Shown here in pieces: positions 1-64,000 of a stretch of DNA of 64,000 nt. The notes beneath the pieces are model-generated. The model was not told the DNA's origin. It was given only the letters and a program-made list of their open reading frames with translations, and did no database searches. The position numbers were made by a program, and so were the translations under genes. This stretch comes from a virus, in IMG/VR virus record IMGVR_UViG_3300045988_117314, positions 1 through 64,000 of that record; one strand, written 5' to 3'. Each line of letters begins with the position of its first letter. Position 1 is the stretch's first letter.

Positions 1-150
1 AGGATTGCAGTGCTTTAAAACAGCATTCTGTAGGTTCTTCCAACAAGATTAAGGATTGCAGTGCTTTAAAACAGCATTCTGTAGGTTCTTCAAACAAGAT
101 TAAGACTTACAGCGTTTTTAAAACAGTATTCTGTAGGTAAGAGTTAAGGA
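1..150. repeat. tandem direct repeat, ~51-bp unit x ~2.8 (1-51 and 52-102 near-identical; 103-~150 degenerate)
   Basis: Read directly: AGGATTGCAGTGCTTTAAAACAGCATTCTGTAGGTTCTTC[C/A]AACAAGATTAAG repeated head-to-tail. The array abuts the window edge, so more copies may lie upstream. Confidence 0.8.
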
Positions 151-208
151 CTGCATTATGTGAGTATTTTTTTCAATCGGAATGTATAACAATTAAAACA
201 TAAACAAC

Positions 209-490
209 ATGAACGTATATGACTTTGCGCCTGACTTAGATTTGAGTAAGGAGGGAGAAGGTTCTATTTTTGGGGTGAAAGGAATAGAAGACGGTGATGG
301 TATAGTATATGCTAAGGTAGTTAGCTGTGCAGAAGTTAAGGATTACAGTTGTGAGGGGTGTATTTTTAATGATTGTTATAAGAATAAATGTTTATTATCG
401 CGTAGTGTTAGTTGTGTAGATGGAGACTGGCTTTGTAGGTACGAACAGGCTGCCATAGAGGGGGGGGGAGTAGGCGGCGCCTTGGGCTAA
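209..490 (+). CDS. small Cys-rich protein (CEGCIFND motif); member of a 3-gene paralog family (209, 1912, 28842)
   Basis: ATG at 209. SCEGCIFNDCYKNKC motif shared with 28842..29051 and, more weakly, 1912..2160. The C-terminus is Gly-rich and runs into a GC-rich patch. Confidence 0.5.
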   Translation: MNVYDFAPDLDLSKEGEGSIFGVKGIEDGDGIVYAKVVSCAEVKDYSCEGCIFNDCYKNKCLLSRSVSCVDGDWLCRYEQAAIEGGGVGGALG

Positions 491-505
491 GGCCTGCGGT
501 TGTAG

Positions 506-4937: not shown

Positions 4938-5420
4938 ATGAAAGAGGAAGTAGAACGGATAAAGAGGTTGGTTGGCATAGATCATAATAGATGGGAGCAA
5001 CCTTGTACATGTGATAAATGCAAGAATATGTGTAAGGTCCCTTGTATTGGTACGCCAAAAGACATAGAGGCTATCATAGATGCCGGATACGCTGACAGGT
5101 TAAAAGAAACAATGTGGATGGTCGGGTATCTTGCAGTGAAAGAAAAACCAATAGCGATGATCCAGCCAACAGAAAAAGACGGGTGGTGCGCATTCCGCCA
5201 GCCGGACGGTCTCTGCGAGCTGCATGACCGCGGACTAAAGCCGACTGAAGGAGTTCTGGCTTCTTGCAAGGTGGTTGAAGAAGACGATATTCCAACATAC
5301 GAGACATCCGTACTTAGAGCGGTAGCCCACGAGTGGGTTAAGGTAGAGAACTTCGCAACTACAATGAGGGTCGTTTTTAAATACTTGCATTACAATGAAC
5401 GTAGAGAACAAGATAAATAA
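4938..5420 (+). CDS. hypothetical Cys-containing protein (160 aa)
   Basis: ATG 4938. CTCDKCKNMCKVPC motif. Contains a GC-rich patch (about 5190-5290). Confidence 0.55.
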   Translation: MKEEVERIKRLVGIDHNRWEQPCTCDKCKNMCKVPCIGTPKDIEAIIDAGYADRLKETMWMVGYLAVKEKPIAMIQPTEKDGWCAFRQPDGLCELHDRGLKPTEGVLASCKVVEEDDIPTYETSVLRAVAHEWVKVENFATTMRVVFKYLHYNERREQDK

Positions 5421-6406: not shown

Positions 6407-6594
6407 ATAAAAAGAGCAGAAAGGATTATGAAAAGTATCTTAACTCCATATCTCCAGATAGAGACGATGAGGCATGGATCATTGGAGGAAAGAACAGGTA
6501 TTGCGGTAGAGAGAATTATGGTACTATGATCAAAAGATATGATCCTATTGGTTTCAGTGTAGGATACAGGGAGTGGGCAGAACAGCCAGAGTGA
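6397..6594 (+). CDS. hypothetical protein (65 aa)
   Basis: ATG 6397 overlapping the upstream gene end; followed by a GC-rich palindromic patch. Confidence 0.4.
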   Translation: MDINKKSRKDYEKYLNSISPDRDDEAWIIGGKNRYCGRENYGTMIKRYDPIGFSVGYREWAEQPE

Positions 6595-6696
6595 GGCGGC
6601 GCCTGCCCTGCCATGAGGTCGGCCTGGCTGTTCGTGGCCAGGATCATACATTAATCAGATAGTGAACAACGAAAACAATACAAATGTTTGTTAATT

Positions 6697-9141: not shown

Positions 9142-9285
9142 GTTATAATGGCTGATAGTGACGGACGCCACAGGAGACAGGTGGGTAAAGTGCGAAGAGC
9201 TCCGGTTCAGGGGAGACGGGGCCTGCTTTGCGTGGAGTAAGGCTACAGTAGATGAAATTGTTGAACATTTTAAAAACAGATAATT

Positions 9286-11584: not shown

Positions 11585-12646
11585 ATGAACAATTCAATGG
11601 TCGCTCACTTGTGGGCTCATGAACAAGAAGAATCAGCATCAGGGAGCAATTTCTTCTTTGAAGGTACAAGTATTTATTCTTATGGGCATCACTTTGAAGT
11701 CGGGAGAATAGTAAAAAACAAACAAGGGAAGAAAGCATACCTGATAAATGAAGATTATTATTCTGCTACCACGGGCAAACATCAACGCTATGTTCGTGAT
11801 GCGATACCAATTTGGGCAATGGTTTTCAGTGTAGGGGATAATATATCGGATACTGGTAATATGAGGTTTGTTGCCAGCAAACTGGAATCAATTAAGAAGT
11901 CTATTGAAAAATACAAAAGAGCTAAGACAGAATTATCTTATACAGATATTTGGGGCGCTTTTGGGAATATGATGGATTACATTCAGTTCTTTAACATGGG
12001 AACTGCTAAGAGTATCCTTAAAAAGAGTGCTAATGATTGGCTTGGAACCAATCATGAATTATCCAAGAGCGGAGATAGTATCAAGCGTAAGCACGTACAT
12101 GAATTAAAACGCATCTTTCAAATTTTATTGGATCATCAAGGATTAAAAGTGTTAGGGACCGTAAATGTGATTGTTGATGAAGTTTGCGGGGAAGGTACAT
12201 GGATTAAGTATTCAGAAAGATCTGAAAGATGGAGAAAGGGTGAGGAAGAAAGAGAAAGAATAAAATTAGAGAGATTAAGAAAGGAAGAAGAAGCCCGTTA
12301 CAAGGATTTTGATGAAAAACTGGAAGAGTGGAAGTCAGGAGAAATCAATTTCTTGAATACACCTTTCTATATTCCTGGTGAAAAACCTAACGCCTGGATT
12401 CGTATAAAAGGAAATATTATTGAGACAAGTAAACAGATAAAGATTGGAATAGCAGAAGCCAGAAAACTGTGGCGGGCTGTGTCGGCAATGCACCGGGGCG
12501 CCGAGTTTCGGCACGGTCTGGTGGAGGACGTCACCGGTCACCAGTGGAGTCTAAATCGGTACGAAAACGATTTGCTAACCGCTGGATGTCATAGGATAGC
12601 ATATAACGAAATGGAGAGAATAGCAAAACAACTGGGATGGGTTTAA
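11585..12646 (+). CDS. hypothetical protein (353 aa), coiled-coil ER/K-rich segment
   Basis: ATG 11585. Contains a GC-rich patch at about 12476-12560. Confidence 0.6.
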   Translation: MNNSMVAHLWAHEQEESASGSNFFFEGTSIYSYGHHFEVGRIVKNKQGKKAYLINEDYYSATTGKHQRYVRDAIPIWAMVFSVGDNISDTGNMRFVASKLESIKKSIEKYKRAKTELSYTDIWGAFGNMMDYIQFFNMGTAKSILKKSANDWLGTNHELSKSGDSIKRKHVHELKRIFQILLDHQGLKVLGTVNVIVDEVCGEGTWIKYSERSERWRKGEEERERIKLERLRKEEEARYKDFDEKLEEWKSGEINFLNTPFYIPGEKPNAWIRIKGNIIETSKQIKIGIAEARKLWRAVSAMHRGAEFRHGLVEDVTGHQWSLNRYENDLLTAGCHRIAYNEMERIAKQLGWV

Positions 12647-16780: not shown

Positions 16781-17617
16781 ATGAGCGCAAGTAAAGAATA
16801 CAAGGCAGTAAGAAACTGCATACTAAATGAACTTCACCTTACCAAAGAAGATATAATCAAAAACATAGAATCATTATTGGAAAAACTTGTAAAAAGGTGT
16901 ATGCATAATACGTACGGAGGAAACAATCAGATAGAACATTGGATCAGATGTATGGTAAACGATGAGCTTAAACAAAGGGATTATGGTTTTGTAGAAAGAA
17001 TAAGCAAGGAAGTCGTGAAAGATCATGTGCTGAATGAGTTGAACATAATCGTAAGACCCAAAAATGAAAGATGCGTATGCGAAAATAGAGTGCCATCAAG
17101 AAAAGATGGTTTGTATCTAATCTACGGGAACGGACACGTAGAGCCGTTTACCGGCGATAACTCCAAAGATTGTGTACGATACATCGGGTTGAAGCACAGA
17201 TACATGTCATTTGCAATCTCACTGACGGAGCATGATATCGTACAATTGCTTGACGATGATAGCCGTGAAGAATCCGGAAGTGGGACATATTATGAACGTG
17301 AATGTGATGCGCTGTTTGACATTGACGGACGCGGCAATACGGAACGCCTTGTAGCCAGAAATCCAAAATTGAGAAATCTGCTGGAAGATGGCGAGTATAT
17401 ACCATCTCTTGGTCAATTAAATTTAATGGCCCATTATATGGACGAACTAAACAAAGCATTCACTTATGTTTCGGCATCTCCCCTCTCCTCGACGTGGTAT
17501 TGGTCCAGTACTGAGAGCAGCCCGAGCGTCGCGTGGTACGTGGACTTCTCCATTGGTAGCGCGTACTACAGTGACAAGTACAACAGTAGCAGGGTTCGGG
17601 CGGTAATTGATTTTTAA
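16781..17617 (+). CDS. protein with C-terminal DUF1566 (Lcl / Fib_succ_major)-like domain
   Basis: C-terminus TWYWSSTESSPSVAWYVDFSIGSAYYSDKYNSSRVRAV matches the DUF1566 signature (WSST...AW.v.F..G......VRcV). This domain is encoded by a GC-rich patch. Confidence 0.5.
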   Translation: MSASKEYKAVRNCILNELHLTKEDIIKNIESLLEKLVKRCMHNTYGGNNQIEHWIRCMVNDELKQRDYGFVERISKEVVKDHVLNELNIIVRPKNERCVCENRVPSRKDGLYLIYGNGHVEPFTGDNSKDCVRYIGLKHRYMSFAISLTEHDIVQLLDDDSREESGSGTYYERECDALFDIDGRGNTERLVARNPKLRNLLEDGEYIPSLGQLNLMAHYMDELNKAFTYVSASPLSSTWYWSSTESSPSVAWYVDFSIGSAYYSDKYNSSRVRAVIDF

Positions 17618-22756: not shown

Positions 22757-24069
22757 AAGAGAAAATAAAAATATTGACAGATTTAGGATTTGTCCCTATG
22801 GTGGAAGGAGAAGGAAATACGTTGTTTAGAATGAACGATGTTGTGATGTCGGTGTCAGATCCTAACCAAACACCAGAGCAGTTGAAGAAGGAGGTTATGT
22901 CTTTAATAAAGAACAGAGACATAGCAGAAAGAGGCGGACAGGTTCCAGTAGTTGAAGAGCCGGCGCCTGAGACAGAGCAGGCCCAGAAGGAGGAACCGGA
23001 AGCTCCGGCGGAGGAAGCCGCTCCTAACCCTGGAGAAGAGGATTCGAATCCGTTTACAGAAAATCAGGAAACGTTAGAACCGTTTTATATCTGTGATGAG
23101 TTAAAGAAGATTGAGACTCCCAAATTCGTAAGATTGACATTAGACGACAATCGTTTTTATGTAAGGAAGATGGATGATGGGACAGCCAAGATATATGCTT
23201 CGGTAACAACCTTAATCAAAGACGGATATGTAGATGATAAGACAGCACTTCAGGAATGGAAGCAAGAGATAAAGATGCTTGGTCGCAATCCAGAAGAGAT
23301 AGCGCAGTATGAAGCCGATAAGGGAACGATCATGCACTACCTATACGGATTGTACTTGACAGGTAGAGATATGGTCTTAAATCGAAATTTTATAGTTAAG
23401 ACAGTGCAAGAAGGTAAGCTGAAGATATCGAAGAAAAATCTTGACCGATTTTTTAACAGCATAGATGATCTTGACGATATGATTGTCAGGGTCATGAAGT
23501 TTGCCAAATTCTGTTCTGATTACAAGGTGAAACCGATGATGATAGAAAGAATCCTTTCTTTAGAGGATTACCTTGTAGCAACACCTATTGATGCGATGGT
23601 TAAAATGACATTCAAATACAAAGAAGAAGGTTATTTTGGAGCCGTATATCAAAGGGCTACAGGGCAGTTCAAAAAAGGCGATCCGAAGAAGGAAGTAAGA
23701 GAAGTGGAGAAGGAAGAAGTGGTCATTCTTGACTTTAAATCGGGAGGTATATGGGAATCATACGCATTCCAATTAGAAGCTGAAAGAAGAATGGTTAAAG
23801 CATGGTACGGAATTGACGCGCGTATTATGAACTTTTCTCCAAAAAGCACGAGCAGTAAAGGATATACGCTGAAAGAATGGACAGAAGATAGTGTAGCACT
23901 TGAAAAGGCGGACTGTGTGTTCCAACAAGGGATGTTGAATCACCTTAGAAAAGACAAGAGGTTCAAAGTGAGAAAAGGAGTGCTGAATATCAATAAGCCT
24001 TACAATGAAGAGGATCATATTGTTGTATATGATATTGCTGAGGAAATGTCTAAAAGATTCGTAATATGA
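22753..24069 (+). CDS. protein with C-terminal PD-(D/E)xK (RecB/Cas4-like) nuclease motifs; Pro/Glu-rich linker after N-terminal domain
   Basis: ATG 22753 with SD GAGGAAGA. VVILDFKSGG...YAFQLEAE resembles the hhDYKTG and QLxxY nuclease motifs. The N-terminal half is of unknown function. Confidence 0.5.
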   Translation: MKEKIKILTDLGFVPMVEGEGNTLFRMNDVVMSVSDPNQTPEQLKKEVMSLIKNRDIAERGGQVPVVEEPAPETEQAQKEEPEAPAEEAAPNPGEEDSNPFTENQETLEPFYICDELKKIETPKFVRLTLDDNRFYVRKMDDGTAKIYASVTTLIKDGYVDDKTALQEWKQEIKMLGRNPEEIAQYEADKGTIMHYLYGLYLTGRDMVLNRNFIVKTVQEGKLKISKKNLDRFFNSIDDLDDMIVRVMKFAKFCSDYKVKPMMIERILSLEDYLVATPIDAMVKMTFKYKEEGYFGAVYQRATGQFKKGDPKKEVREVEKEEVVILDFKSGGIWESYAFQLEAERRMVKAWYGIDARIMNFSPKSTSSKGYTLKEWTEDSVALEKADCVFQQGMLNHLRKDKRFKVRKGVLNINKPYNEEDHIVVYDIAEEMSKRFVI

Positions 24070-24646: not shown

Positions 24647-25652
24647 TTTCAGAAGATACGAAAACGTACCTCGGTTTCAACTTGACCGCAGGCCCGGAAG
24701 GAGCCGACTGAAGCTAACCTGCCCGGCTTGCGGAAAAAGCCGGTGCCTCACTCCTTATATTGATGTGGCAACAGGTCAGGTTGTTGGCAACGAGTTCGGA
24801 AGATGCGATCATGAACGGACTTGCGGTTACGATAAACGACCTACTGGTAAGGATGTAGGTGACAAAGATCTTTGGATTTCAGGAAACAAGTGTATAAGAG
24901 CTTATCGCCCTCCTGTAAATCCTGACGTTGTAAATTACATACCTTTTAGCGAGTTTGAGAGGACTGTGGTTCCAGACGATAGAAACACTGTATTTAGATT
25001 TTTATCGTCTCTATGGGGAAAAGAAAGGGTGTCTGATGTATTCAGGAGGTATCATGTAGGAACAATGGACTTATGGGGATGGAAAGGATGTTGTATATTC
25101 TGGCAGATAGACAAAGATTTTGTATGTAGAACCGGCAAGATCATGGACTTTTATATAAAAACCGACGGCCAGGGGAATGAGATTGATGTAAAAAGAGTGA
25201 AGGAAAAAGACGGTGACAATGAGCGGCCTCATGTTATGTTTTATCACTCGTTGCATGCAAGAGACTTCTTGTTTAGACAATGCCTGTTCGGAGAGCATCT
25301 TCTAAGCCAGTATCCGGATAAGGTGGTTAATTTGGTGGAATCAGAAAAGACGGCTATTATATGCGCTGTGAATAAACCGGATGAGTTATTTGTAGCTACC
25401 GGTGGGTTGCAGAATCTAAGACCGGAAGTGATAGATGTTTTAAAAGATAGAAAGACCGTAGCTTTTCCGGACAAAGGACAAGCATTTGAGACATGGAGTA
25501 AAAAGATAGATGGGATGATGATGAAGTCAAGGATAAAAGTATCGGACTATCTTCAAAATGTTGAAAATGTAGGAGACGGAGATGATGTGGCAGATTTGAT
25601 AATCAATAACAAGGTAAAAGAAAAATATCATGAGCCTGGACGTTTATATTAA
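24639..25652 (+). CDS. putative DNA primase-like protein: N-terminal zinc finger plus TOPRIM-like C-terminal region
   Basis: CPACGKSRCL...CDHERTC zinc-binding cluster. C-terminal VESEKTAIICAV...ATGG...FPDKGQ resembles a TOPRIM E...D..D layout. Lies just upstream of the DnaB-family helicase. Confidence 0.45.
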   Translation: MLDFRRYENVPRFQLDRRPGRSRLKLTCPACGKSRCLTPYIDVATGQVVGNEFGRCDHERTCGYDKRPTGKDVGDKDLWISGNKCIRAYRPPVNPDVVNYIPFSEFERTVVPDDRNTVFRFLSSLWGKERVSDVFRRYHVGTMDLWGWKGCCIFWQIDKDFVCRTGKIMDFYIKTDGQGNEIDVKRVKEKDGDNERPHVMFYHSLHARDFLFRQCLFGEHLLSQYPDKVVNLVESEKTAIICAVNKPDELFVATGGLQNLRPEVIDVLKDRKTVAFPDKGQAFETWSKKIDGMMMKSRIKVSDYLQNVENVGDGDDVADLIINNKVKEKYHEPGRLY

Positions 25653-40489: not shown

Positions 40490-41195
40490 CTATGCAGCAA
40501 AAGCCAGAAAAGCTTATTTGATAAACAATTTCGATAAGATTCTTAACAGCCTCAACACGCTTCATTCAACGGTTGAAACCATGACGTTGTTCGTAAATGA
40601 CCAGGCTTATAATTACATTCTTAAGCTAAAGGAAGTAATTAAAACCAGTCCTATGTATAAGCACAATATCAAGCGTCTTTTAAATGATATGGACAAAGAG
40701 ATAAAGAAGTACAATGCTTCTATCTACTACATAAATAAAGAGCGTAGTGAGGTTATAGCTGATATAACACAAGCGATGGAAGATTACCTCATGCCATACA
40801 TAGACGACCTGGCCGGCGCTATAAGGGCAGCCGTGTGGTCGAGGGGTGTATCCGAGGAGCGGACGGAGGTGGCGGTACTGTCCCTAATCGTATCCTCCTT
40901 GGCCACGACATCAGGCAGACTTATTTCAGGTGGATATCAGATTATGAAAGAAATGGGTGGAGGCTGGGGTGGTAATCCATTTACGTTTATGAGCATTGAT
41001 AAGATAAGACACTTATCTACATCATTATCTGATGCTATTACCGGTGGAGAAATAGCTCTTGAAGAAAAAGAAGCCAATGACATAACTAAGGCAATGGATG
41101 TTTTTATTGAGAAAATGTCTGATTCAGATATCGTCGATAAAGTAATCAGCATACTCGAAGAGGCTGAGTCTAAAAATAAGGAGGAGCGATCATGA
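40482..41195 (+). CDS. hypothetical protein (237 aa)
   Basis: ATG 40482. Confidence 0.5.
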   Translation: MINYAAKARKAYLINNFDKILNSLNTLHSTVETMTLFVNDQAYNYILKLKEVIKTSPMYKHNIKRLLNDMDKEIKKYNASIYYINKERSEVIADITQAMEDYLMPYIDDLAGAIRAAVWSRGVSEERTEVAVLSLIVSSLATTSGRLISGGYQIMKEMGGGWGGNPFTFMSIDKIRHLSTSLSDAITGGEIALEEKEANDITKAMDVFIEKMSDSDIVDKVISILEEAESKNKEERS

Positions 41196-42325: not shown

Positions 42326-45300
42326 CTATTTGTAACTAACATCATCGTCTCCTTCCGAATCAGGAGTGGCGCCAATGAAGAACATCATTGACTTGTTGTT
42401 CGTCTGCTGCCACCAATTATAGGCGCGCGCTACGTCTTCCGGCGTCTTGATATTATACCATTGTTTGATAAACGTCTGTTTGGCGAGTTGCCTAAATAAC
42501 TTAGACTCTCCTTTGTATGTACCGGACGTCACCTTATCAAGTGAGTAGTTCCTAAGATCGGTAAGATCCTTAAGTTTCCGTCCCATAACAAACGGGTCGT
42601 TAATGATATCTACCACATTAAGCTCCATAATAAACGGCATCTGTGAAGCTATTTCATTTATGGTTCTGAATCCGACGTAGGATCCGAATTGAGTAAGCCA
42701 ACTTTCCTCGTTTTCATCATCATCACGCCATCCGGCAAGAAGCATAGATACGGCCTGCATGATAAGGAACGTGCCGGCATAGACACTGAGGCGTTTGAGA
42801 TTGGTTTTTTCTACCTCATTCATATTGTCTTTATTTTCGTTCCAGGCATCTATGATGTTTTTCATACCAGACTCGGAAGCTAAGCTAAATGTTTTGGCTA
42901 TCATATTCTTTAACGTAATTGACAGTCCCTCCTCTTCTTGCATTGTCTGGAAATTGAAGCCACGACTCTTCCATAGACGCTGAGCAGCCAGCACCAACCA
43001 TCCTCGGTGGGCGGTCATGAACCTCGCTATCCAGTTGCGTGATGCGGCAGTCCGATTTTCTTCATTCAAAGATCCGTTACATATTTGCGACAAGCTACGG
43101 ACTTGATTTCGAGTTATAGCCATCTGGGTTTCAACTTCCTCAACAGTAACACCTGATCCGGGCTTTACAACCACCTTCCCATCCACGACATCTACCATAC
43201 TCCATAAAGTACGATCTTTTAATGCATTCCATTCTCTTTTTATGGTACTCTGTTCTTTATTGCGTTCTTTTTCCATCTTGAAATCTTGGAACGTGTAGAA
43301 CCGGCCTTTGTAATAACGAACATTGTCCATAGTAGCAATCATAACCTGCGGATCAAGAGGGTAGTTCAGGATTTCCATAAAAGCATACATAGGCGAACGC
43401 ATTAAGGTCCTGGCCACTCTATTATATCCGGCACCATACATACGATTTCGGATATTGAATATCCCCATTCTCTCACCTATGACATATAATTTGCTTTTCC
43501 TATCTATGTCTCCGGTTTCTGCTATACAAGATGGCGCAAGACGTGAAAACTCAGCCGATGCGTATTTAAGGGAATTTTTACTTATATACTGTCCTACGGC
43601 AGATTCCATGATGAGGTTAATATGACCTGTTAAGGCGCCGGTAGCTGCCACAAACGGGGACAGCGCCAGGTTCATGACCGACATAAATCTTTCAACGGCC
43701 ATCATTATCCTGGTAAGGTCTACTGTGTATCCACCGATGTTTACCGTCAGTTTTTTGGTGTTCATCCTAATGCCATAATAATGATCGTTGAAGAAGTCCC
43801 TGAACATCTGATATGCTTGGGTTGCTTCAGCCTTCTTACCGCCTTCAAATTGTTTATTCAGTAACATCTGCTCCAGTCCTTGGGCAAGCTCTATAGACTT
43901 CTGCTTTTCGTTGTATAACGATGACTGCATCATAAGCATCGAATAAGAATAGCCAAAATCGTGAGATACATCATCTTGGTTCTCCAATTCATATATGTAG
44001 TATTTAGGTATAGACCTAAGCCTGTCTTCCGGATCATACACTTCTCCTTGCCTGGTTTTGCCATATAGAGAATCGTCTACTCTGTCCAGGCACAGATCTG
44101 ATACAAAATTACGAACCGTATTTTTGAAGTTAATACCCAATCCTTCTACACGTTCTATATCTTGTTTGGATATCTGTGGAATAGCATACAGGTTCGGGCT
44201 CTGCTCTTTATATAGATCAAGGGATTGTCTTTTTATTTCCTTGAGTTTTTGAATCATATTCCACTGCTCTACGTTTTTAGTAGCGACCTCATTACCATCA
44301 GCATCATACTTAATGCCGAAGTCATTGAAATATGATTCATCACGATACAGGCTCTTCTTGGGCATACGATGACCATACCCGTGGTCTTTTACATAATCAG
44401 GGTTACGACCGCTATTTTCGGCCTCGGATTCAGCCACCCACGCTCTTGCAGGGTCAAAAGACAGGTATGATATATCCATACTATAATCTTGTGTGGATGT
44501 CCCATTCTGTACGTCCTTAACCATCTGCGCTACATCTATCTCACCTCGACCGATTTTGTCGATCATAGCCGCATATCCAGTAGGCGCCATGCGTTTATAG
44601 TACGAAAAGACCTGGCTCCTGGCAAATTCATTAACGATATCGTTCACTTCAGCTACTCCGTTATCGTGTCCAAATATGTCAGACATCTTAGCTCTAACCG
44701 CATTCCTAAAATCTCTACGATCTAGCTTTTTATCTATTCCCAATTTTTCTGACAAGTAGTTGGTTTCAGAGACGGTAAACATATATCTGTTATCTTGAGC
44801 CATGAATAACTTATCTCTAAGAGCCTGAATCCTTTTGGCTTTTTTGGCAGTAGTATGACGCTGTGCAAACTGCCATTCAATTTCCTTAGAGTCAGCAAGA
44901 GCATTTAAATAAGACTGATTTACTTCGTTTTCAGCCTTACTGCTTTTAGTAAGGTATTTATCAATATCTTCAAGACCCACCATCTTAGCATAATCTATCA
45001 AAATAGCGTAATCGGCTTCAATAGCTTCAGATGCGGCCCTAAAAGCATCTCTTTCAGATGAGGTAAATGTCGCTTCATTAATTTCTCCGATATCAGCCAC
45101 ATCTCGGTTGTTGCCGATTATTTCCTTGATAATGGCCTTATTTTTTTCTATATCTTTTACAATCGAATCCACGTCAGTTGCATCTCTATCACTTGTCGTA
45201 GAACTAATGATATCATGCGCCATTTTAAGATATGAAGCCTTGTTATTTGATTCGGTACGCGCCGACTGTTCTGATTCTACATCATTCCAAAACCGATCGT

Positions 45301-48300
45301 TGAATGACAGGTGACCCCCCAACATAAGCGTCTTCAGCGCAGCTTCTCCTCCTGACTCGCTCTGGATCGTTCTTAATTTTTGCAAAAACGATTCTGATAC
45401 GGCATTAGTGACATTATTTGATTCTTTTCTCCAAACTTCATTTATGGCTTGTATTTCTTTAGCCATCTTAAGTTGGTCGCCGGTTTTTTCAACACGTCTG
45501 GTCCCTACATATATGTATTCCGAAGCTGCTTCCTTACGTTGTTTACGAAGCAGTCCTTCTTCTTCGTAGTTACTACTCTTATAGTAAGCAACCTCATCAA
45601 AATTACCACCGCTATCAATAAAAGGCTGCCTCAATATCCGTTTTTGCCGGGAAAGAGCATTAAGATACTCTTTAGTTGTTTGAGAAACCGGATACCCTAA
45701 TTCTTCTTCAGCCTTTTTGTATATGGATTCCATTCTTGTGGCATAACTTTCGCTAAATTCCAGTTCCGAATTTTCAGCATCCCACTTTTCCATCTGCTCT
45801 GTATAGATCTTTTCCTGCTCGATGGTAAAAATATCGGTATTAACCCTATCAGACGATGGTTTGAATTTAGCGTTTTCAGTAACCGTATTTCCATCCTTGT
45901 CAACTACTTCTCTTTTAAATACGTAATTACGGTTATTGTCAACCACATCACCAATTTCTTCTTCTGATATCTCTATGTTCATGGCAGTCGCAAACGCTCG
46001 CATCTGCGCCAGCTTCTTATTACGATCGTATTTAGCCATATCAAGAGCACTACGAAGGTAATTAGAAGTTTTGCCGTCTACTTTCTGAAGCAGTTTTTCA
46101 AATTCAGATTTGTTAAAACCATGCTTTTTCGCATATGCCAGGAAATCGGATATGGCGGGCTGGGCATTCACCATCGCATTGTAATTGTCTTTGGCAATCA
46201 TAGCTCCAAGAGCGTTATTGAACGGACTGGAAGAATGCTCTAATATACCGAACCACCTACTTATCCAAGAAACATCGTGTTGAACCTTGTCGAAAAATTC
46301 TTTTACTCTCTTTACCTTATCTGCCGGCACATGAAGTTCGTTCATTAACTTATCAAGCAACGTACTTTCATCAAGGTCTTGTACTGATTTAATATCAGAC
46401 TGAATACCATTGATGTCGGCAATGACGGTATTGATCCTATTTGTATAATCCTGCTTTTCACGTTCATCAAATTCGGTACTTCTGTTACGGATATATCCTC
46501 GAAGATCGTTCATGATCGGAAGAACCTGATTGTTGATAATATCTACGTTCTTTCGATCATTGGTATTGAAGTGAAGCTTACCGTCTTTGGTATCACCATG
46601 AAGGATGGTGTTCACCACATTGCTTAAGTATCTGACCTGAGCTTCGGCTGTAGAGATCATGCTGTTCATGGCAGCCGCCATCTCATTCTTGTCTATTTCG
46701 GTCTCTACCTTATTTATCTTATCTTCTATGGTCTTAAGCTGAGCAAGGGTCATAGACGTAGTTACAGCCCTATCAGAGCTTATCTGACGTAAGTCTCTTA
46801 ATGTTTTCCTTAATGCCAGGATCTTAGACTCAAGAAACTTGTTCTTGTTCATAGAAGAAAGGGAGTATAATGTAAAGTCATTATCCTTTAACAGAGAGGT
46901 GTCAAATCCTTTATCTATGTCAGTAATGGCAAGATCACGAATGTTTTTAATAACGTTATTCAAATCTTGTCTTTGGGTTGATAAAGCTGATTTAAGCCAG
47001 CTTACGATTCCAGAGAAAAGCTGCCGGACGCGCCCCAGGAAGGAGGTGGGCTCTACCGGCGCCTGTGCTGTGCCGGTCTGCATCTCCCTGGCGAGGATCT
47101 TTCCAAGAATTTCTCTCCTAACAGCATTATCAAGTTCAGAGCCTTCATATACCTTACCGTATGTATTATAATACTGACCTGCATACTGATTCCATTCTTC
47201 AGTGCCTTCTACATCTTGCAAAACAGATTCAACAGCATTCTGATCTCTGTACGCCTCTACGAGAAAGTGTGCTGTTTCTTCTACTAAGTCAGACAAAGTA
47301 GCATCTTCACCGACTGCTATTACGTTATTGGCAATATCCGCCAATGCCTTAGCAGAAGGTTTGTGTCCGTATTTAGTTTGGTACTTCTCTATATAATCGG
47401 TCATGCCAACGACACTAACGCCCAGCGTTTTCAGTATCTCAACAATAGAATTTCGTTGATTACGTTCCTCTTGGCTATAATCCGATACTATCTTAGCTTT
47501 AGTATCAGCATAAAGATCATTGTCTTCTAATATAAATGAAACTACAAGCGCATCAAAGTGATCGTATTTAGCATCCAATTCATTGTATCTTCCAGACTTA
47601 AGATCGCTCTTTATCTGCTCCTTGCTAACTCTTTCTGTTCCTCCGGTGGCGAGTCTCATAGTTACCTTACTATTATCCAATGAATTTATGGTTATCATAC
47701 CCTGGTCGTTCATGGAAACATCGGAACCAAAATGATTACGGAGCTCAGTGTAGGATAAGGCTGAATTGAAAAGTCTAATTTGTCCTGTATGTCCTTCTCC
47801 TGTAATATAATAGCTTCTTGTTTCCGGATCGAATATCTTGGATCCGGACAAAAGACCTTTCTTTATAAGGTAGTTAATTATACCACCTTTTGTTGATAAA
47901 GAAGTAGAAGCAGAAGCGGTCATGACCGGTATAAAAGACTTGGGATTATTAAGAACATACTTTCCAGCCTTGTAAGTAATGTCTGCCACGCCATCCACGG
48001 CAGATTCTTGAACGGTGCCGGATAAGAATCCTATTCTAATATCATTCCCTCCAGAGCGAAGAGCTTCTCCGTAATCTTCAAATAATTGACTACGATCGTT
48101 CATGAAAAACAAACGAGGCTCTCCAGTATGATACGTTACACCCACAGGATTAGAATCTGTCTGTGGTAACTCTTCTGGGCTAAATATCTTAAGACCGTCT
48201 TTTATAACCATATAATTAACACCCTTATCCTGTACCATAGATACGGGAGTGAAGTCCGAAGATATAGCATCTTGTAAATACTGCCCGGCGTCTATTCCAG

Positions 48301-52436: not shown

Positions 52437-52660
52437 AATCTGTCCCCTCCTAATCCTGAATTGATGCTAACATACTTAACACGGACATCATTTCCACGTC
52501 CAAGCTGACCCCAGCCGGGCGATGGCGTTCCCTTGGCCGGAGCAGGGACAGCCCTAAGCCGAGACCAGTCCTGCTTTTGCCTCATGGCTTCAGCCTCTTT
52601 GTAATACCGGTTACACAGTTCTTGATCCTCGTAACCAACGTAATCTTCCTTATTTTCCAT
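52433..52660 (-). CDS. hypothetical protein (75 aa)
   Basis: ATG 52660; includes a GC-rich patch at 52490-52580. Confidence 0.4.
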   Translation of the reverse strand: MENKEDYVGYEDQELCNRYYKEAEAMRQKQDWSRLRAVPAPAKGTPSPGWGQLGRGNDVRVKYVSINSGLGGDRL

Positions 52661-53515: not shown

Positions 53516-53884
53516 TCAATAAGAACGACCTCTGCCACGTCCGCGACCTCTACGCATCTGAGGTCCGTCACCGTAGTATCTGTCGTCTCCATAGTAATCG
53601 GTCGGGTAGGATTCGTAACCCATCCTCCGGTATTCCCGGTCCTCCATTTCATGACGACGTTCGCGCTCTTCAAGCCTTCTTTCCCTTTCTTCCAGCTCGT
53701 TTTCGCGTTCTTCCATTTCCTTCATCTTCTCATGCATACCGTAATGGTCGTAAATACCACCACCGTACCCCATGTACGTCCCATCAGAACGCCGGCTTCT
53801 GCCTCTGCCTCCACCTCGTCTGTCTTCTATCTCGTCATATCCAGGATATTCTCTGTGTCCTGAATTTAAATCATATACTATCAT
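53516..53884 (-). CDS. Arg/Gly/Glu-rich protein (RGG/RGR repeats, ERERRLEERERR)
   Basis: ATG 53884; low-complexity RG-rich termini typical of nucleic-acid-binding proteins. Confidence 0.5.
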   Translation of the reverse strand: MIVYDLNSGHREYPGYDEIEDRRGGGRGRSRRSDGTYMGYGGGIYDHYGMHEKMKEMEERENELEERERRLEERERRHEMEDREYRRMGYESYPTDYYGDDRYYGDGPQMRRGRGRGRGRSY

Positions 53885-54873: not shown

Positions 54874-55881
54874 TCAGACAGCAGCGTTGTTATTGCAACA
54901 TCCGTTGTTACATCCGCATCCGTTATTACAGCAACCTCCTCCGAATACCTGTCCCCAAGTATAAGCCTGGTAAGGAGAACAAGAGGGGTAGGCCGGGACG
55001 GCCGTCGGGCGTAATTGACCAACGATATTCTGGGTTTGTTGCTGAGATAATGCCGAAGCTGTCAAAGCCGCTTTTTCTTCACGAAGTTGAGCAATAGTGT
55101 TCTGCATTTCCCTCATTTCCAACTGACAGAATTTGTCGTTGATCATAACGGTTTGGGCGTCAAGTTTCGCAGACAAGATATTGAATTGGCTTGTAGCTTG
55201 CTCACGATTGTTAGCCAGACCTTGGTTGAGACCGTTCTGCAAGACATTGGTTTGTTCCAACGTGCGAAGCTGGTTATCAAAACCTTGCTGAGTAATCATT
55301 CCCTGAGTCTGGCAAGTGCTTTGATTGATCAACGAACTCAGATTGCAGCAGCAAGAGCTGATTTGATTTCCTATTTCACAACCTTGTTGTTGAACTGCGT
55401 TGATAACAGCCTGAGAAGTCATACCTACCTGACCAGCTACTTTATCAATAGCACCCTGTACGTTGCAGATAGCGTTCTGAAGTTGAGTAGTAGAACAGTT
55501 CAAAGCAGAAGCAATCTGATCTATGGCGCTACGATTACCTTGAATTGCCTGCATCAAAAGTTCACGACCGTAATCGTTATTCAACTGAGCCGGCAAACCA
55601 TTGGCACAACAATCACCGCCATTTCCAAAACCGTTACCGAAGCCGCGTCCACCCCACAGCCAGAACAAAACAATTATCCAGAGCCACCAACCGTTAGCCC
55701 CACCGAAACCGTCCTGGTTGTTACGACCGTTCATCAAAGCCGCCACCAGATTCGGATCCATTTTATTACCACCTATCAAATTAGCAAACATGCCGGGAAT
55801 CATTGAAAGAAGACCGTTAGTGGCTGCACCACCACCGTTAGCCCCGGCTCCATCTAAAAGGACGATTTTATCACCACCCAT
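54874..55881 (-). CDS. Gly-rich N-terminus, Trp-rich TM helix, Gln/Asn-rich coiled region, Cys-rich C-terminus (GGGCCNNGCGCNNGCCNN) membrane protein
   Basis: ORF 54874..55938. Start is probably ATG 55881 (MGGDKIV...) or ATG 55938. TM segment WWLWIIVLFWLW. Confidence 0.55.
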   Translation of the reverse strand: MGGDKIVLLDGAGANGGGAATNGLLSMIPGMFANLIGGNKMDPNLVAALMNGRNNQDGFGGANGWWLWIIVLFWLWGGRGFGNGFGNGGDCCANGLPAQLNNDYGRELLMQAIQGNRSAIDQIASALNCSTTQLQNAICNVQGAIDKVAGQVGMTSQAVINAVQQQGCEIGNQISSCCCNLSSLINQSTCQTQGMITQQGFDNQLRTLEQTNVLQNGLNQGLANNREQATSQFNILSAKLDAQTVMINDKFCQLEMREMQNTIAQLREEKAALTASALSQQQTQNIVGQLRPTAVPAYPSCSPYQAYTWGQVFGGGCCNNGCGCNNGCCNNNAAV

Positions 55882-60300: not shown

Positions 60301-60303
60301 TAC

Positions 60304-63300
60304 TCAACACTCCTTATTTAACTCATTTATCGAATCCGAATTATCAGAACCTTCTACGAGATTCTTATTCCTATCTATCTCTTCCTGGCTCATATTACTC
60401 ATCATATTTTGTATTTTTCTACCAGATTGAGATAAAGAGCGGATGAATGCACTGGAACTTATCTTAACTCCAAGATCCGGTTTTGCCCTAAACGCTTCAC
60501 CGGTACTGATATTATACAAATCATACACACCTGAGTTCATATAGAATTTATATATCCAGTTTCCACCAGCTTTTTTGTACCCTAATTTGGTTAACTCGAC
60601 TACACTCATACCAAATTTAATGCCATTACGACCCATTATCTTCTCTGGTATAGGTTCTACCTTAGCCGGAACAGATGTATATGCTTCATCACCGCCGTAC
60701 AGGAAATAAGGAGATGTTACCCTTGATATGTGAGTAAGCGGTTCTTCGGATATACGAGGTTCGTCTTTTTCTATTTCTCCTTTTGTAGATCCAGGTAATT
60801 CGACATTTCCTTCAACTTCGACATTTGTTCTGGATTGTCCTTTGCCTTCTCCATCTCCCTTTTTATCGCCATCTTCCTCAGTGCGTACTGCACCGCCTTC
60901 TGCACTTCCTTCTTTTCCATCATTTAAAATATTATCTGATTCTGACTCTATAGACTCCACGACAGCATCATACTCTGGTATGCCGCTAAGGAAATCTGCT
61001 ACGTTATTCAAAAACTCTATTTTTTCCTCGTTTGTCATATCAAGGCTTTCCACGGGCCTCCATATGGCAGGCAAGTTGTTTGATTTTATTGCAGTAGAAA
61101 CATCTTCTACAGTTTTATTATCCACCGTAGGCAAAACTTTAGAAACCAAACTATTGATATCAGATTCCATTTTTTCTACTTCCTCTTTTGTGCCATATTC
61201 TTTTAGGGTATCCATGCCATTGACTCTAAGAGAATAATTTAAAGCCTTACTTGGAACAAAATTAATATATTTCAAAAAGTTTTTCAACTCTGATATAATT
61301 TGTTCGTCAGATCTTGGACCAACATAATCAACCACCACCTGATCTGTTTGAGAACGAAGCCAAGAAACATATTCTTCTAAGGTCTTACCTCCCTTTTTAG
61401 AAGGAGTGGATATTTTATCACCTACTGTTCCTTTAGGTTCTAATCCCATTTCTTCCTTAAGGCTTTTAGGATTACCTCTCTCACGAAGAAACCTCAAATC
61501 ACCTCCTACAATCTTCCTTGCTATAAAATCAAAAATATTAGCATAAGACGGCAATCCTTCTTTTTCTATATGAGATTCTATTTCGTTTAACATAAGAGAG
61601 AAGTTTTTCCTGGAGGTACGCTTCTTGCCAGGTAAAGACTGCGTAGCTTGTGCCGCAGGAGCCGGCTGGGCTGGTGGCGCCGGCCGAGTCCCCCGGACAG
61701 GGTCTTCCTCTGGCATTTCATCTTCGTAAATATCCACATCTTCCTTGGAAGTAACGGTCTTACCCTCATCGGAGAAAGGGAGATCATCTTCTATAAGTGA
61801 TTTAGGTCTGGAAGATGATTTACCAAACTGAATCCTGATCTTAGGAGCGACAAACATCTCACCTTCGAAATCTATTCCAGATTCTACTTCAGACGTCACA
61901 ATGTCTTTCACATTCCTGCTTTCATCTTCTACCCACTTAACAACATCAGGAACCGTAGATAATTTTTCTATAGCCTCACGAGCTTTTCTAAGCCCTGAAA
62001 TAGGATTCAAATACGATACTTGATACGAAGCCGGATCAAGACCTAACTTGGTTAGATACGCATTAAGATCTTGTATGTCATCTTGACCCATCTGTAGCAA
62101 TTCAGAATCACCAGATTCAAGCAGCATATCTATAAAAGACATCCATTTCTGCCCTTCCTCTGATTCTACAGAACGTAGGCTAACTGGGAAAAGATAATTA
62201 AGACCGTTTTTACCTTTGATGACGACTACCGGAACTCTTACATTTTTGTAATTATTCCCCTTGTCATTTAATATAGAATAAGCAAATGGGAAGCCTGTGT
62301 ATTTAGATCCGTTCTTAAGCACGACTTTGCCATTTAATACATATCCAACATCAGATACTTTTTCAGCACCTTTTTCGGTAATAGGGAGATTTTCTATCTG
62401 GCCATATCCTTGACCGTTCACCTTCATGTTAAACACCGGTCTTCCGGGAAGGGTCTGGGCAACAACATGCGTGCCGACGCCGATGGTAGCCGACCGGCCG
62501 GCGTCCTTCTTCCACTTGTTAAAAGCCGTTCTTCTTATTTTACTTATACCATCTATGCCTCCTGTATCAGCTTTTACAACAGAAACGAATCTGTTCCCAC
62601 TCATGACCTTGATAACCATATTGGACACCAGTTTATTCTCAGCAGATTCTATTCTTTTTTTATCGCCGGACTGAACAGCATCATTGTATTCGGCAAAAAG
62701 AGACTGATTATAAGTATCATTTACATCTATTTCGAGATTAACCTTATCTCCTTTTTTCAAAGAAGATAATGCTTCCTGATCTATTTTATCTACCTCATTC
62801 TCTCCGAATCCGACACCCGTTCTGTACGGAACCAATTCATCTGAATCAAGACGCTTATAAACCAAAGAATAGGAATTACCCACGTCCTGAATAGACACGT
62901 CTGTGTAACGGTTAAGAACACGAGCCGATTCTTTGTCTATAGACCATCTCGCATGATAAGGCAGTTCAATTATAGTAGCCGTTTCTCCACCTATGTTAAG
63001 AGAATACCTTTTAGTACCATTAGCGTTCGTTTCAGAGCTTATTTGAATAGGAACCAATGATTTTATAGAAGATATAAATTTATCGGCTCTAAGACCCGCA
63101 ATTTCATACCTTTCGTTGCCATCGTTGGATATTCTTCTAACCATCAACGTCTCTGGATTTTGGGCACTATCTATGTTAGCTCCAGGCGTATTATCGGATT
63201 CATCTAACTCATTTACAAGAGAATCTATATTGGTATCATCCTCCCCAAAATTACTTAACGTAGATTCGGAAATACGACCTTTATCAATAATCCTGTTTTG

Positions 63301-64000
63301 TTCAATATAAGGAAGGAGATCTGTGATGTTTCCAACCTGGCCAAGATCTTCTATGGTAAATACAGAATCGGCAAGCTTATCTTCGTCAACCTTCTCCCCT
63401 TTATCCCGTCTGTTCATTATATCAACATACGAAGAAATAGCATCATCAAGTTCCTTCCTTTGATCTGGTTCCAAATTGGATTTAGCCATATCAATAATAG
63501 CTTTATTATCCTCATACACAGATCGATGTTCAGTAAGTCTCCTAACTTTATCTGATAAATCTTTTATCATCTTAGCCGGACTATCACCAAGATTTGATAT
63601 ATAATCATCAATATCCTGTTTATACTTTTCATATATCTCCTTCTCCCTTGGAGATAAAAGATCTTGATTACCTGTATATATCTTATCTACGATACGTTCT
63701 TTAACCTCTATAGGTGCAGACAAAAGATCTTCCATTGCCGACTCATAATCAAAATCAGACAATATATCTTCTTTCGGCTTCTGAGTTATACCATCGTTTA
63801 GATGACCAAATACTTTCATGGTAAATGCTTCATCTGAATTTATTTCTCCATTATTCAGAAGCTCATCTATTTTTTCATCCAAACTGATATTATTACCCTC
63901 TGTCTGGTAAAAACGATCACTTTCTATAGATTTAGTATTAGAAGATACCATATCATTTAAGAACTTAGAAAATAAAGAAAAATCATGTCTCATGAATTTC
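60304..64000 (-). CDS. large protein (at least 1229 aa; may extend beyond the window), probable virion/structural protein; Pro/Ala-rich linker around aa 730
   Basis: ATG at 63993 but the frame is still open to the window edge. Contains GC-rich patches at about 61630-61700 and 62440-62500. Confidence 0.75.
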   Translation of the reverse strand, partial: KFMRHDFSLFSKFLNDMVSSNTKSIESDRFYQTEGNNISLDEKIDELLNNGEINSDEAFTMKVFGHLNDGITQKPKEDILSDFDYESAMEDLLSAPIEVKERIVDKIYTGNQDLLSPREKEIYEKYKQDIDDYISNLGDSPAKMIKDLSDKVRRLTEHRSVYEDNKAIIDMAKSNLEPDQRKELDDAISSYVDIMNRRDKGEKVDEDKLADSVFTIEDLGQVGNITDLLPYIEQNRIIDKGRISESTLSNFGEDDTNIDSLVNELDESDNTPGANIDSAQNPETLMVRRISNDGNERYEIAGLRADKFISSIKSLVPIQISSETNANGTKRYSLNIGGETATIIELPYHARWSIDKESARVLNRYTDVSIQDVGNSYSLVYKRLDSDELVPYRTGVGFGENEVDKIDQEALSSLKKGDKVNLEIDVNDTYNQSLFAEYNDAVQSGDKKRIESAENKLVSNMVIKVMSGNRFVSVVKADTGGIDGISKIRRTAFNKWKKDAGRSATIGVGTHVVAQTLPGRPVFNMKVNGQGYGQIENLPITEKGAEKVSDVGYVLNGKVVLKNGSKYTGFPFAYSILNDKGNNYKNVRVPVVVIKGKNGLNYLFPVSLRSVESEEGQKWMSFIDMLLESGDSELLQMGQDDIQDLNAYLTKLGLDPASYQVSYLNPISGLRKAREAIEKLSTVPDVVKWVEDESRNVKDIVTSEVESGIDFEGEMFVAPKIRIQFGKSSSRPKSLIEDDLPFSDEGKTVTSKEDVDIYEDEMPEEDPVRGTRPAPPAQPAPAAQATQSLPGKKRTSRKNFSLMLNEIESHIEKEGLPSYANIFDFIARKIVGGDLRFLRERGNPKSLKEEMGLEPKGTVGDKISTPSKKGGKTLEEYVSWLRSQTDQVVVDYVGPRSDEQIISELKNFLKYINFVPSKALNYSLRVNGMDTLKEYGTKEEVEKMESDINSLVSKVLPTVDNKTVEDVSTAIKSNNLPAIWRPVESLDMTNEEKIEFLNNVADFLSGIPEYDAVVESIESESDNILNDGKEGSAEGGAVRTEEDGDKKGDGEGKGQSRTNVEVEGNVELPGSTKGEIEKDEPRISEEPLTHISRVTSPYFLYGGDEAYTSVPAKVEPIPEKIMGRNGIKFGMSVVELTKLGYKKAGGNWIYKFYMNSGVYDLYNISTGEAFRAKPDLGVKISSSAFIRSLSQSGRKIQNMMSNMSQEEIDRNKNLVEGSDNSDSINELNKEC

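Follow-up and report, generated by a model that had tools for sequence, protein, structure and literature searches.

The local base composition of phage genes is normally ascribed to protein sequence and genome-wide mutation bias, and the viral DNA analyzed here departs from that expectation. Positions 1 to 64,000 of IMG/VR record IMGVR_UViG_3300045988_117314 (hereafter, the window) have an overall GC content of 37.7% and are interspersed with short GC-rich islands that had been pointed out in an earlier note made from the sequence alone. What are these islands, and what keeps them GC-rich? We find that a lineage- and position-specific force favors G or C at all site classes in patches of ca. 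50 to 80 bp and that this force preserves composition only, i.e., no particular sequence or fold. As its mechanism, we propose GC-biased gene conversion at short hot spots of recurrent recombination, to which we assign a probability of roughly 0.38 and which we rank slightly above selection for local GC-richness.

Short GC-rich islands in an epsilon crAss-like phage

The window belongs to an epsilon crAss-like gut phage. Over aligned DNA, it is ca. 93% identical to the 151-kb genome of crAssE-Sib (OR575929), a phage from the human gut that was published as epsilon crAss-like and placed in the proposed genus Epsilonunovirus (PMC11054128), and a 3.4-kb segment at 6053 to 9512 has no counterpart in that genome. 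Genes, taken as naive open reading frame (ORF) calls, lie on the plus strand up to ca. 42.1 kb and on the minus strand from 42.3 kb on. The plus-strand part is an early/replication module with genes for a DUF6371/zinc-ribbon primase, a DnaB-like helicase, a flotillin/SPFH protein, a PD-(D/E)XK nuclease, a superfamily 2 (SF2) helicase, a dATP/dGTP diphosphohydrolase-like protein, and a C5-cytosine methyltransferase. The minus-strand part encodes very large proteins that are probably structural.

Islands were detected with an 80-bp sliding GC window, and maximal-scoring cores were then delimited. This yields 23 separate segments of at least 60% GC, 11 of at least 65%, and 2 of at least 70%. When synonymous codons are shuffled with all proteins kept, 6.1, 1.6, and 0.2 segments are left at these thresholds, and permutation of codons within genes leaves 4.0, 0.15, and 0, respectively. 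The islands therefore exceed chance by far and are real: the 23 segments compare to 4 to 6 in the nulls at the lowest threshold, all 15 segments that the earlier note had located were recovered, and the windowed GC analysis that it had proposed as a check places them well outside the codon-shuffled nulls. Their cores are 20 to 81 bp long with 66% to 85% GC, and a typical island of ca. 50 to 80 bp occurs about once per 3 kb, mostly within a gene. The same excess was found in both fetched parts of crAssE-Sib but not in 50 kb of phage T4 (36% GC) or 50 kb of Cellulophaga phage phi17:2 (33% GC), and the islands are therefore lineage-specific rather than a general trait of AT-rich phages.

Both the encoded peptides and the choice of codons contribute to these islands. 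Island codons have 70.4% GC, the same peptides written in the normal codon usage of the genome would have 55.8%, and the coding background has 37.5%, so that 56% of the GC excess comes from amino acid composition and 44% from synonymous choice. Pro (4.1-fold), Ala (2.7-fold), Arg (2.6-fold), and Gly (2.1-fold) are enriched, while Ile, Tyr, Asn, and Lys are depleted 5- to 14-fold. Codon usage differs between inside and outside for CGG (0.31 versus 0.06), CTG (0.45 versus 0.11), and GGC (0.39 versus 0.13), and GC is raised at codon positions 1, 2, and 3, which bears out the initial impression that islands within ORFs keep the frame and switch to GC-rich codons. At the third position alone (GC3), the cores reach 0.72 compared to 0.37 outside islands. 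Two kinds of islands can be told apart. Five to six owe their GC mainly to the peptide (named by start position as in Table 1: 53526 and 53790 with RG repeats, 61652 and 22959 with Pro-rich linkers, 52494, and 460 with poly-Gly), and the others have a GC3 of 0.7 to 1.0 with peptides that predict only ca. 0.5 GC. The former number agrees with the approximately six segments that survive the synonymous shuffle, and only for these would a low-complexity Gly/Ala/Pro/Arg peptide account for the GC.

One explanation would be that the islands are a by-product of the proteins, i.e., that they follow peptides that are rich in Pro, Ala, Arg, and Gly or strongly conserved, with GC3 raised through neighbor-dependent mutation bias or selection for codon accuracy at critical residues. 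Such a view draws on the 56% share of amino acid composition, on the islands that survive the synonymous shuffle or have an ordinary or moderately raised GC3 (ca. six and five to six, respectively), and on the location of several islands on catalytic or metal-binding motifs. Yet the shuffle reduces the islands from 23 to 6, core GC3 is far above that of the remaining genes, and GC3 is only weakly related to GC at positions 1 and 2 or to amino acid conservation. Genome-wide, the top 5% of 20-codon windows for GC at positions 1 and 2 have a GC3 of just 0.45. Locally, the two measures correlate with r = 0.14 in the window and negatively in T4 and phi17:2, and the correlation of GC3 with amino acid conservation is 0.06 to 0.15. 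CGG, the most enriched island codon, is to our knowledge not a typical preferred codon, which also counts against a protein by-product. Furthermore, two island centers lie outside called ORFs (6569 to 6642 and 9162 to 9226), in line with the intergenic islands of the earlier note, and the skew in allele frequencies described below is not predicted by pure mutation bias. Protein composition or a general neighbor effect thus fails to predict island GC3. The synonymous shuffle and the weak relation between GC3 and positions 1 and 2 rule out protein composition and context-dependent mutation as the full cause, and we regard the by-product explanation as unlikely. The earlier note had itself considered that the islands might simply track Gly/Ala/Pro/Arg-rich peptides without sharing a motif. 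Half of this holds, as the peptides are of that kind and no motif is shared, yet 44% of the excess is synonymous and about three quarters of the islands are lost on synonymous shuffling.

Island positions across genera and in the population

We examined three syntenic loci of related phages that were found by protein searches and contig look-ups: L304 (35.5% GC, about 78% protein identity to the window), L302 (44.3% GC, about 60%), and L303 (46.5% GC, about 60%). The GC of homologous codons in these genera is included in Table 1. Best conserved are the islands of the primase and of the SF2 helicase, the latter with synonymous turnover, while the islands of the DnaB-like helicase and the flotillin are kept in L304 and the nuclease island is kept in L302. 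The low values for the linker of the replication factor in the other genera show that this island is lineage-specific. GC3 is higher at island-homologous sites than at other sites in L304 (0.54 versus 0.31; P = 0.002) and in L302 (0.77 versus 0.52; P = 0.0005), and the difference is not significant in L303 (0.63 versus 0.59). L304 also has five islands of its own compared to 0.62 expected, and three of these five are homologous to islands of the window.

Where residues are conserved, the fraction of four-fold sites at which the window and L304 share the third base is 0.35 outside and 0.41 inside islands, so that synonymous sites are saturated between the two. Sites that are saturated yet GC-rich imply that high GC3 is an equilibrium property of these positions and not inherited sequence, and, as far as GC3 is concerned, they rule out descent from a GC-richer ancestor as the source of the islands. 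With the same gene order, the members of this family differ in composition (44% to 47% GC with GC3 of 0.5 to 0.6 in L302 and L303; 35% to 38% GC with GC3 of 0.3 to 0.4 in the window and L304), and this wide spread among genera indicates that the family went through large compositional shifts. The islands are conspicuous only in its AT-rich members.

Variation within the species was followed in 240 IMG/VR loci of one species-level cluster (89% to 98% nucleotide identity) that jointly cover positions 167 to 63687. One large metagenome data set contributed many of these genomes, which are interrelated rather than independent, and variants were polarized by taking the major allele as ancestral. 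Every island tested is present in all genomes that cover it (50 to 80 per island), with a partial exception at 12471 to 12547. There, the same codons have 0.64 to 0.70 GC in window-type alleles, 0.58 to 0.60 in a clade of alleles with 68% protein identity, and 0.47 in crAssE-Sib, in a gap-free and colinear alignment in which the amino acids have moved toward Ala, Arg, and Gly.

Outside islands, the equilibrium GC3 implied by polymorphism equals the actual value of 0.37, and the spectra of GC-to-AT and AT-to-GC variants are near-equal (mean minor-allele frequency 0.161 and 0.157, respectively). Within islands, the density of synonymous variants per available site is 1.6 times that outside for AT-to-GC changes and 0.74 times for GC-to-AT changes. 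GC-to-AT variants there also segregate at lower frequency than AT-to-GC variants, both at synonymous sites (0.079 versus 0.118; Mann-Whitney U test P = 0.008, island-level bootstrap P = 0.018) and at non-synonymous sites (0.063 versus 0.142; P = 0.007), with a frequency difference of 0.057 over all variants (95% confidence interval 0.026 to 0.085). Since this skew in frequency and density favors GC only inside islands, we conclude that they are held GC-rich and are not simply decaying. The islands were picked on the window's own sequence, and this choice would, if anything, add rare AT-to-GC variants, so that the skew is probably conservative.

These results also bear on the possibility that the islands are foreign patches, i.e., short conversion tracts from the homologous genes of GC-richer relatives or from other GC-rich donors, which the earlier note had put forward as mosaic recombination. 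The family indeed includes GC-richer genera (L302 and L303), island codon usage is like that of a GC-rich organism, and substitutions between the window and crAssE-Sib alleles cluster densely at the 12471 island. Against a foreign origin, the islands differ from their homologues by colinear substitutions and are found in all covering genomes as well as in the same codons of another AT-rich genus. Their GC of ca. 0.7 lies above that of the GC-richer relatives' own genes (0.43 to 0.51), and their nucleotides are no closer to L302 or L303 than expected. Polymorphism, finally, shows GC being held up rather than a simple decay to the genome average, and, from these comparisons with relatives and within the population, we consider foreign patches to be very improbable.

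Gene conversion, selection, and embedded elements as possible explanations

If GC-biased gene conversion is the underlying mechanism, co-infecting mosaic relatives would recombine repeatedly at short fixed hot spots, and heteroduplex mismatches formed there would be repaired with a GC bias. Synonymous sites would be driven to GC-ending codons (CGG, CTG, GGC, GCC, and ACC), amino acids would, within the limits set by the protein, shift to Pro, Ala, Arg, and Gly, and the bias would also act on the small non-coding parts touched by islands. The islands would then be recombination footprints and not functional elements. We rank this mechanism highest because it predicts the spill-over into amino acids, lineage-specific islands in unconstrained linkers, a skew at synonymous as well as non-synonymous sites, and lower linkage disequilibrium (LD). 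A footprint of a sequence-specific process had been among the ideas of the earlier note; the position-specific, GC-favoring fixation bias at both site classes speaks for a footprint, but its sequence specificity finds no support. Pairs of single-nucleotide polymorphisms that straddle islands have a mean r2 of 0.113 compared to 0.201 +/- 0.054 for matched random segments (one-sided P = 0.036, 16 islands). All P values for LD are from island-level permutation, and the naive pairwise comparison with its tiny P values was discarded as pseudo-replicated. Lower LD is what recombination hot spots would produce, but it is no proof of them.

Several points weigh against gene conversion. The LD test is marginal (P = 0.14 for medians; P = 0.15 for the first 8 islands alone), and mosaic breakpoints, called with a two-state hidden Markov model on the mismatch track of each relative, are not enriched at islands: 23 of 456 distinct breakpoints lie within 40 bp of an island compared to 20 expected (raw counts are 1.7-fold higher at islands but non-independent). 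The synonymous skew is not significant in the second set of 8 islands alone (17 AT-to-GC variants), and polarization by major allele did without an outgroup among genomes that are non-independent. The equilibrium GC3 of islands implied by polymorphism (0.56) is lower than the actual 0.72, so that some of the signal could be due to ascertainment, or a slow decay could be under way in the islands. In T4, there are no islands in spite of its very heavy recombination. Gene conversion would not normally be expected at hot spots that are only 50 to 80 bp wide and keep their place from genus to genus, and GC-biased repair would have to be assumed for this phage or its host.

Selection for local GC-richness comes close behind gene conversion in probability. 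Under this explanation, the islands would be physical elements that need composition and not sequence—e.g., thermostable duplex "clamps", mRNA segments stable enough to delay ribosomes or to stop RNases, or strand-annealing anchors in modular exchange—and purifying selection would keep their GC. It predicts the GC-ward fixation bias equally well as gene conversion does and explains more naturally the narrow width of the islands, their stability across genera with positions conserved though synonymous sites are saturated, and an island GC of ca. 0.7 irrespective of genome GC. In the second set of islands, both directions of synonymous change are rare (0.065 and 0.054 compared to about 0.16 outside). 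Islands are also over-represented late in genes (8 of 21 in the last 17%; P = 0.018) and just upstream of the next start codon (10 of 21 at a distance of 20 to 160 nt; P = 0.03), but both statistics are marginal with thresholds set after viewing the data. Selection is further at odds with a nucleotide diversity that is not consistently lower inside islands than in their flanks, with the lineage-specific nature of some islands (the replication-factor linker and 12471, which is lost in crAssE-Sib), and with the results on motifs, stability beyond composition, and covariation given below, and we can name no concrete function. We are somewhat more hesitant about the broader proposal that epsilon crAss-like phages carry motif-less, position-conserved GC micro-islands as a new feature class that is selected for a physical property of DNA or RNA. 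The islands could then anchor strand annealing and thereby channel modular recombination between co-infecting relatives, or, as clamps that stabilize duplexes or mRNA, they could set the pace of replication, transcription, or translation. With either role, their function would reside in base composition and not in sequence.

We also considered embedded protein or RNA recognition sites, another proposal of the earlier note, and small embedded elements such as in-frame mobile mini-elements, structured RNAs, repeats of diversity-generating retroelements (DGRs), or empty intein/homing sites. In their size range and in-frame intragenic position, the islands do resemble Rickettsia palindromic elements and yeast mitochondrial GC clusters. 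Yet no repeat family, direct or inverted, links the islands, and the information content of motifs from a Gibbs search is within the null of shuffled islands. Folding shows no excess of hairpins on either strand (z of -2.2 to +2.2 against dinucleotide shuffles, centered near 0), ARAGORN found no tRNA or tmRNA gene, and no Rfam family matched at gathering thresholds. For the primase and SF2 helicase islands, consensus folds across four genera are weak (-8 and -10 kcal/mol), and their covariation term is close to 0. Recognition sites in the sense of a shared site thus find no support in any of these searches. The 11-mer AGGCGGCGCCT that had been described as shared by two islands does exist, although at 472 to 482 and 6594 to 6604 and not at 442 to 452 and 6593 to 6603, and by a rough estimate it is near chance level among island sequences. 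GGCGCC was confirmed to recur, with 12 copies in the window; island cores contain 6 of these compared to 2.0 expected from shuffled cores (P = 0.016). Both GGCGCC and GCCGGC are ca. 3-fold enriched in cores (P about 0.015 each, with several k-mers tested).

Across the whole window, the eight palindromic hexamers made of G and C only occur 12 times (GGCGCC), 17 times (GCCGGC), and 0 to 3 times each (the other six), and an estimate from single-base frequencies gives CCGG (198 copies) as ca. 2.5 times and CGCG (25 copies) as ca. one third of the expected number. The C5-cytosine methyltransferase gene lies at 38763 to 39956 on the plus strand. A CpG-island-like domain was rejected because CpG observed/expected is equal inside (0.86) and outside (0.87) islands.

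Insertions or mobile elements were rejected as well, since alignments of the islands to crAssE-Sib, divergent alleles, and three other genera are colinear at the codon level. The ca. 30 sites at which relatives carry inserted cassettes are almost all between genes and never inside island cores, the closest being beside the 9162 island and ca. 40 bp past the 28078 core. These extra cassettes of 0.2 to 3.3 kb recur at sites such as 5888, 6388, 8282, 14150, 18395, 40487, and 42091, the last being the point where the two transcription directions converge and filled in 63 of 80 genomes.

Intein or homing sites do not fit either: the polymorphic intein site of the SF2 helicase has a GC of 0.48 and a GC3 of 0.40 and is away from the island, with insertion after residue 36 and the island at residues 139 to 155. 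The helicase gene of the window (34620 to 36041) is intein-free, with the insertion point after codon 36 at about 34727/34728. In many relatives, the helicase has 817 amino acids and carries a 344-residue Hint/homing-endonuclease intein in Walker A (between APCGC and GKS), with exteins that are 98% to 100% identical. In more distant homologues, insertions occur elsewhere (near residues 113 to 143 and 337), and that of the distant homologue P0205, between residues 123 and 143, is outside the island.

A DGR variable repeat at 17467 to 17605, where the ORF had the look of a DGR target, was rejected for want of a template repeat in the window or by the crAssE-Sib orthologue and of per-genome hypervariation; the window allele of this Lcl_C-like ORF is identical in several genomes, and there are few discrete allele classes. 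Taken together, small embedded elements are refuted for the features tested, and we judge their probability to be negligible, even though relatives have the polymorphic helicase intein and crAssE-Sib has a DGR that is reported elsewhere in its genome (PMC11054128). At 17540 to 17610, the 3' end of this ORF, 62 population genomes fall into few sharply distinct allele classes with nearly identical flanks, and judging from these sequences the variation looks like allele swapping at a receptor-binding tip and not like active DGR mutagenesis. The island does not encode a whole DUF1566 domain as had been suggested, since Lcl_C (PF07603) matches residues 236 to 275 only (profile positions 75 to 116 of 117, the C-terminal third) at 28.4 bits, which is under the cutoff of 34.9 bits.

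The individual islands and comparison with known systems

The islands and GC-rich segments of the window are compiled in Table 1.

Table 1. GC-rich islands and segments of the 64-kb window, with GC predicted from amino acids and GC of homologous codons in related genera (L302, L303, L304)
Positions	Strand	Class	GC (%)	GC3	GC predicted from amino acids	Location	Contents	Homologous-codon GC
460..499	+	GC island	78		0.67	3' end and stop codon of ORF 209-490	Peptide GGGVGGALG; poly-G run 460-468; GGCGCC at 476
5180..5233	+	GC island	72	0.82	0.51	In ORF 4938-5420	Cys-rich peptide GWCAFRQPDGLCELHDR
6569..6642	+	GC island	70			Across stop of ORF 6397-6594 and 48 nt intergenic	10-bp inverted repeat GAACAGCCAG/CTGGCTGTTC; GGCGCC at 6598
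9162..9226	+	GC island	66			Between ORFs 8332-9141 and 9286-9699	No crAssE-Sib counterpart
12471..12547	+	GC island	70	0.80		87% along ORF 11585-12646	GGCGCC at 12497
17517..17536	+	Core of island 17467-17579				Near C-terminus of ORF 16781-17617	Ser/Pro/Trp-rich peptide; partial Lcl_C/DUF1566-like match
22959..23024	+	GC island	71	0.67		Linker of ORF 22753-24069 (annotated DNA replication factor)	Pro/Ala/Glu-rich; GGCGCC at 22962	Window 0.70, L302 0.46, L303 0.55
24686..24733	+	GC island	71	0.73		Primase ORF 24639-25652	Zinc-ribbon region	Window 0.69, L302 0.69, L303 0.73, L304 0.67
28078..28129	+	GC island	75	1.00		DnaB-like helicase ORF 27074-28207	C-terminal tail	Window 0.72, L302 0.59, L303 0.46, L304 0.69
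31828..31847	+	Core of island 31762-31887				Flotillin/SPFH ORF 30523-32223	Ala/Glu-rich coiled-coil region	Window 0.76, L304 0.71
32541..32589	+	GC island	73	0.87	0.46	Mid ORF 32387-32746
33615..33671	+	GC island	68	0.72		PD-(D/E)XK nuclease ORF 32743-33762	Upstream of C-terminal Cys cluster	Window 0.65, L302 0.68, L303 0.53, L304 0.47
35037..35087	+	GC island	71	0.82		SF2 helicase ORF 34620-36041	Helicase motif III (KVLGFTATPCRLR)	Window 0.71, L302 0.71, L303 0.59, L304 0.69
40805..40875	+	GC island	70	0.78		Mid ORF 40482-41195	In 76/76 covering population genomes (0.66-0.73)
42978..43014	-	GC island	70			90% along 2137-aa ORF 42326-48739
47020..47096	-	GC island	73	0.88		26% along 2137-aa ORF 42326-48739	GGCGCC at 47058
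52494..52574	-	GC island	69	0.58	0.59	Small ORF 52433-52660	Mostly amino-acid-explained
53526..53573	-	GC-rich segment		0.33		ORF 53516-53884	Arg-Gly repeat (GDGPQMRRGRGRGRG)
53790..53818	-	GC-rich segment		0.44		ORF 53516-53884	RGGGRGRSR; GC from amino acids
54203..54249	-	GC island	66	0.80	0.47	ORF 53892-54386
54985..55011	-	GC island	85	1.00		88% along ORF 54874-55938
61652..61714	-	GC island	78	0.60	0.66	ORF 60304-63993	Pro-rich linker (PEEDPVRGTRPAPPAQPAPA); GGCGCC at 61676
62436..62506	-	GC island	70	0.70		ORF 60304-63993

Most of the GC of the 460 island is explained by its poly-G/Gly run, and the same holds for the amino acids of the 61652 island. The 5180 island, with its low prediction from amino acids, is conserved in crAssE-Sib, and those at 47020 and 62436 are each 100% identical there. 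The 6569 island lies in the 3.4-kb segment that crAssE-Sib lacks, and the fold of its inverted repeat region is not significant (z = -0.8). By eye, the 9162 island could belong to an ORF of ca. 30 codons starting near 9149. The 32541 island has a nucleotide diversity of 0.089 compared to 0.044 in its flanks, and the 35037 island is the sole GC peak of the SF2 helicase gene. The segment at 53526, with a GC3 of only 0.33, derives its GC purely from amino acids and is a different phenomenon from the codon-driven islands.

Several other features of the window deserve mention. The poly-G tract at 460 to 468 has 9 G in the window and 5 G in crAssE-Sib and lies 22 nt upstream of the stop codon of ORF 209-490; this difference of 4 nt shifts the frame of the last codons, and the tract may therefore be slippage-prone or phase-variable. 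The minus-strand genes at 53000 to 56000 are broadly GC-richer (0.42 to 0.45 compared to 0.37) and compositionally unlike the remaining late region, and the Arg-Gly repeat peptides of ORF 53516-53884 (GRGRGRG, RGGGRGRSR) are encoded within this block. At its very start (positions 1 to 138), the window has tandem direct repeats of 51 bp, with two copies that are 98% identical and a third partial copy (the inner 22-mer); in the linear crAssE-Sib record, these repeats are near the right end. ORF 37908-38474 on the plus strand matches PF18909 (dATP/dGTP diphosphohydrolase N-terminal domain; E = 1e-25), and the gene is present in all 3 related genera. By this resemblance, it hints at altered nucleotide metabolism or DNA modification, and a PurZ-like gene was not seen beside it.

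In the literature that we searched, we found no description of such islands in phages, and the published description of the crAssE-Sib genome says nothing on GC content (PMC11054128). The window reveals, in an abundant group of human-gut phages, sharp GC spikes that sit at the same codons across genera while synonymous sites turn over. If gene conversion is the cause, the islands would be a clear and finely resolved viral case that marks the sites of DNA exchange in mosaic phages and shows the process reshaping proteins toward Pro, Ala, Arg, and Gly. If selection is the cause, they would be a class of functional elements defined by composition alone and invisible to searches for motifs or structure. 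With either cause, the islands matter for host prediction from codon usage, for recombination analysis, and for the synthetic recoding of crAss-like phages.

Different known systems share some of these properties, the nearest being gene-conversion hot-spot footprints, position-conserved rare-codon clusters, and the GC clusters or palindromic elements of AT-rich organelle and Rickettsia genomes. Vertebrate CpG islands are likewise discrete GC-rich islands on a GC-poor background in genomes that encode a C5-cytosine methyltransferase, but CpG observed/expected is equal inside and outside the phage islands, and there is no sign of methylation-linked depletion outside. Yeast mitochondrial GC clusters and Rickettsia palindromic elements are repeated, palindromic, mobile insertions with presence/absence polymorphism. 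Like the phage islands, they are short GC-rich segments in an AT-rich genome that are sometimes intragenic and in frame, but the phage islands have no shared sequence or extra folding and are colinear with homologous codons, so that the likeness is outward only. Position-conserved clusters of rare codons (translational pause sites) resemble the islands in that ca. 15 to 25 genome-rare codons keep homologous positions while the codons themselves change. The islands differ from them by shifting codon positions 1 and 2 and the amino acids as well, by a skew that is also non-synonymous, and by the two centers outside ORFs. For lambdoid phages, conserved "linker" or boundary sequences have been proposed to serve modular exchange. 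The islands are similarly short conserved stretches in a highly mosaic phage population and possible crossover points, but they are mostly intragenic and not at gene boundaries, and mosaic breakpoints are not enriched at them.

Footprints of the mechanism that we favor, GC-biased gene conversion at hot spots, have been described in mammals, birds, and yeast and proposed for bacteria. Compared to these known footprints, the phage islands are much narrower (50 to 80 bp instead of about 1 to 2 kb for eukaryotic hot spots), are fixed across genera rather than turning over, occur in a phage, and have only a marginal link to recombination. Like these footprints, they show GC raised at synonymous, non-synonymous, and non-coding sites, a drift toward amino acids with GC-rich codons, AT-to-GC variants at higher frequency than GC-to-AT variants, and marginally lower LD. 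We take the islands to represent a known kind of phenomenon, local compositional heterogeneity driven by fixation bias, in a form that we did not find described for phages.

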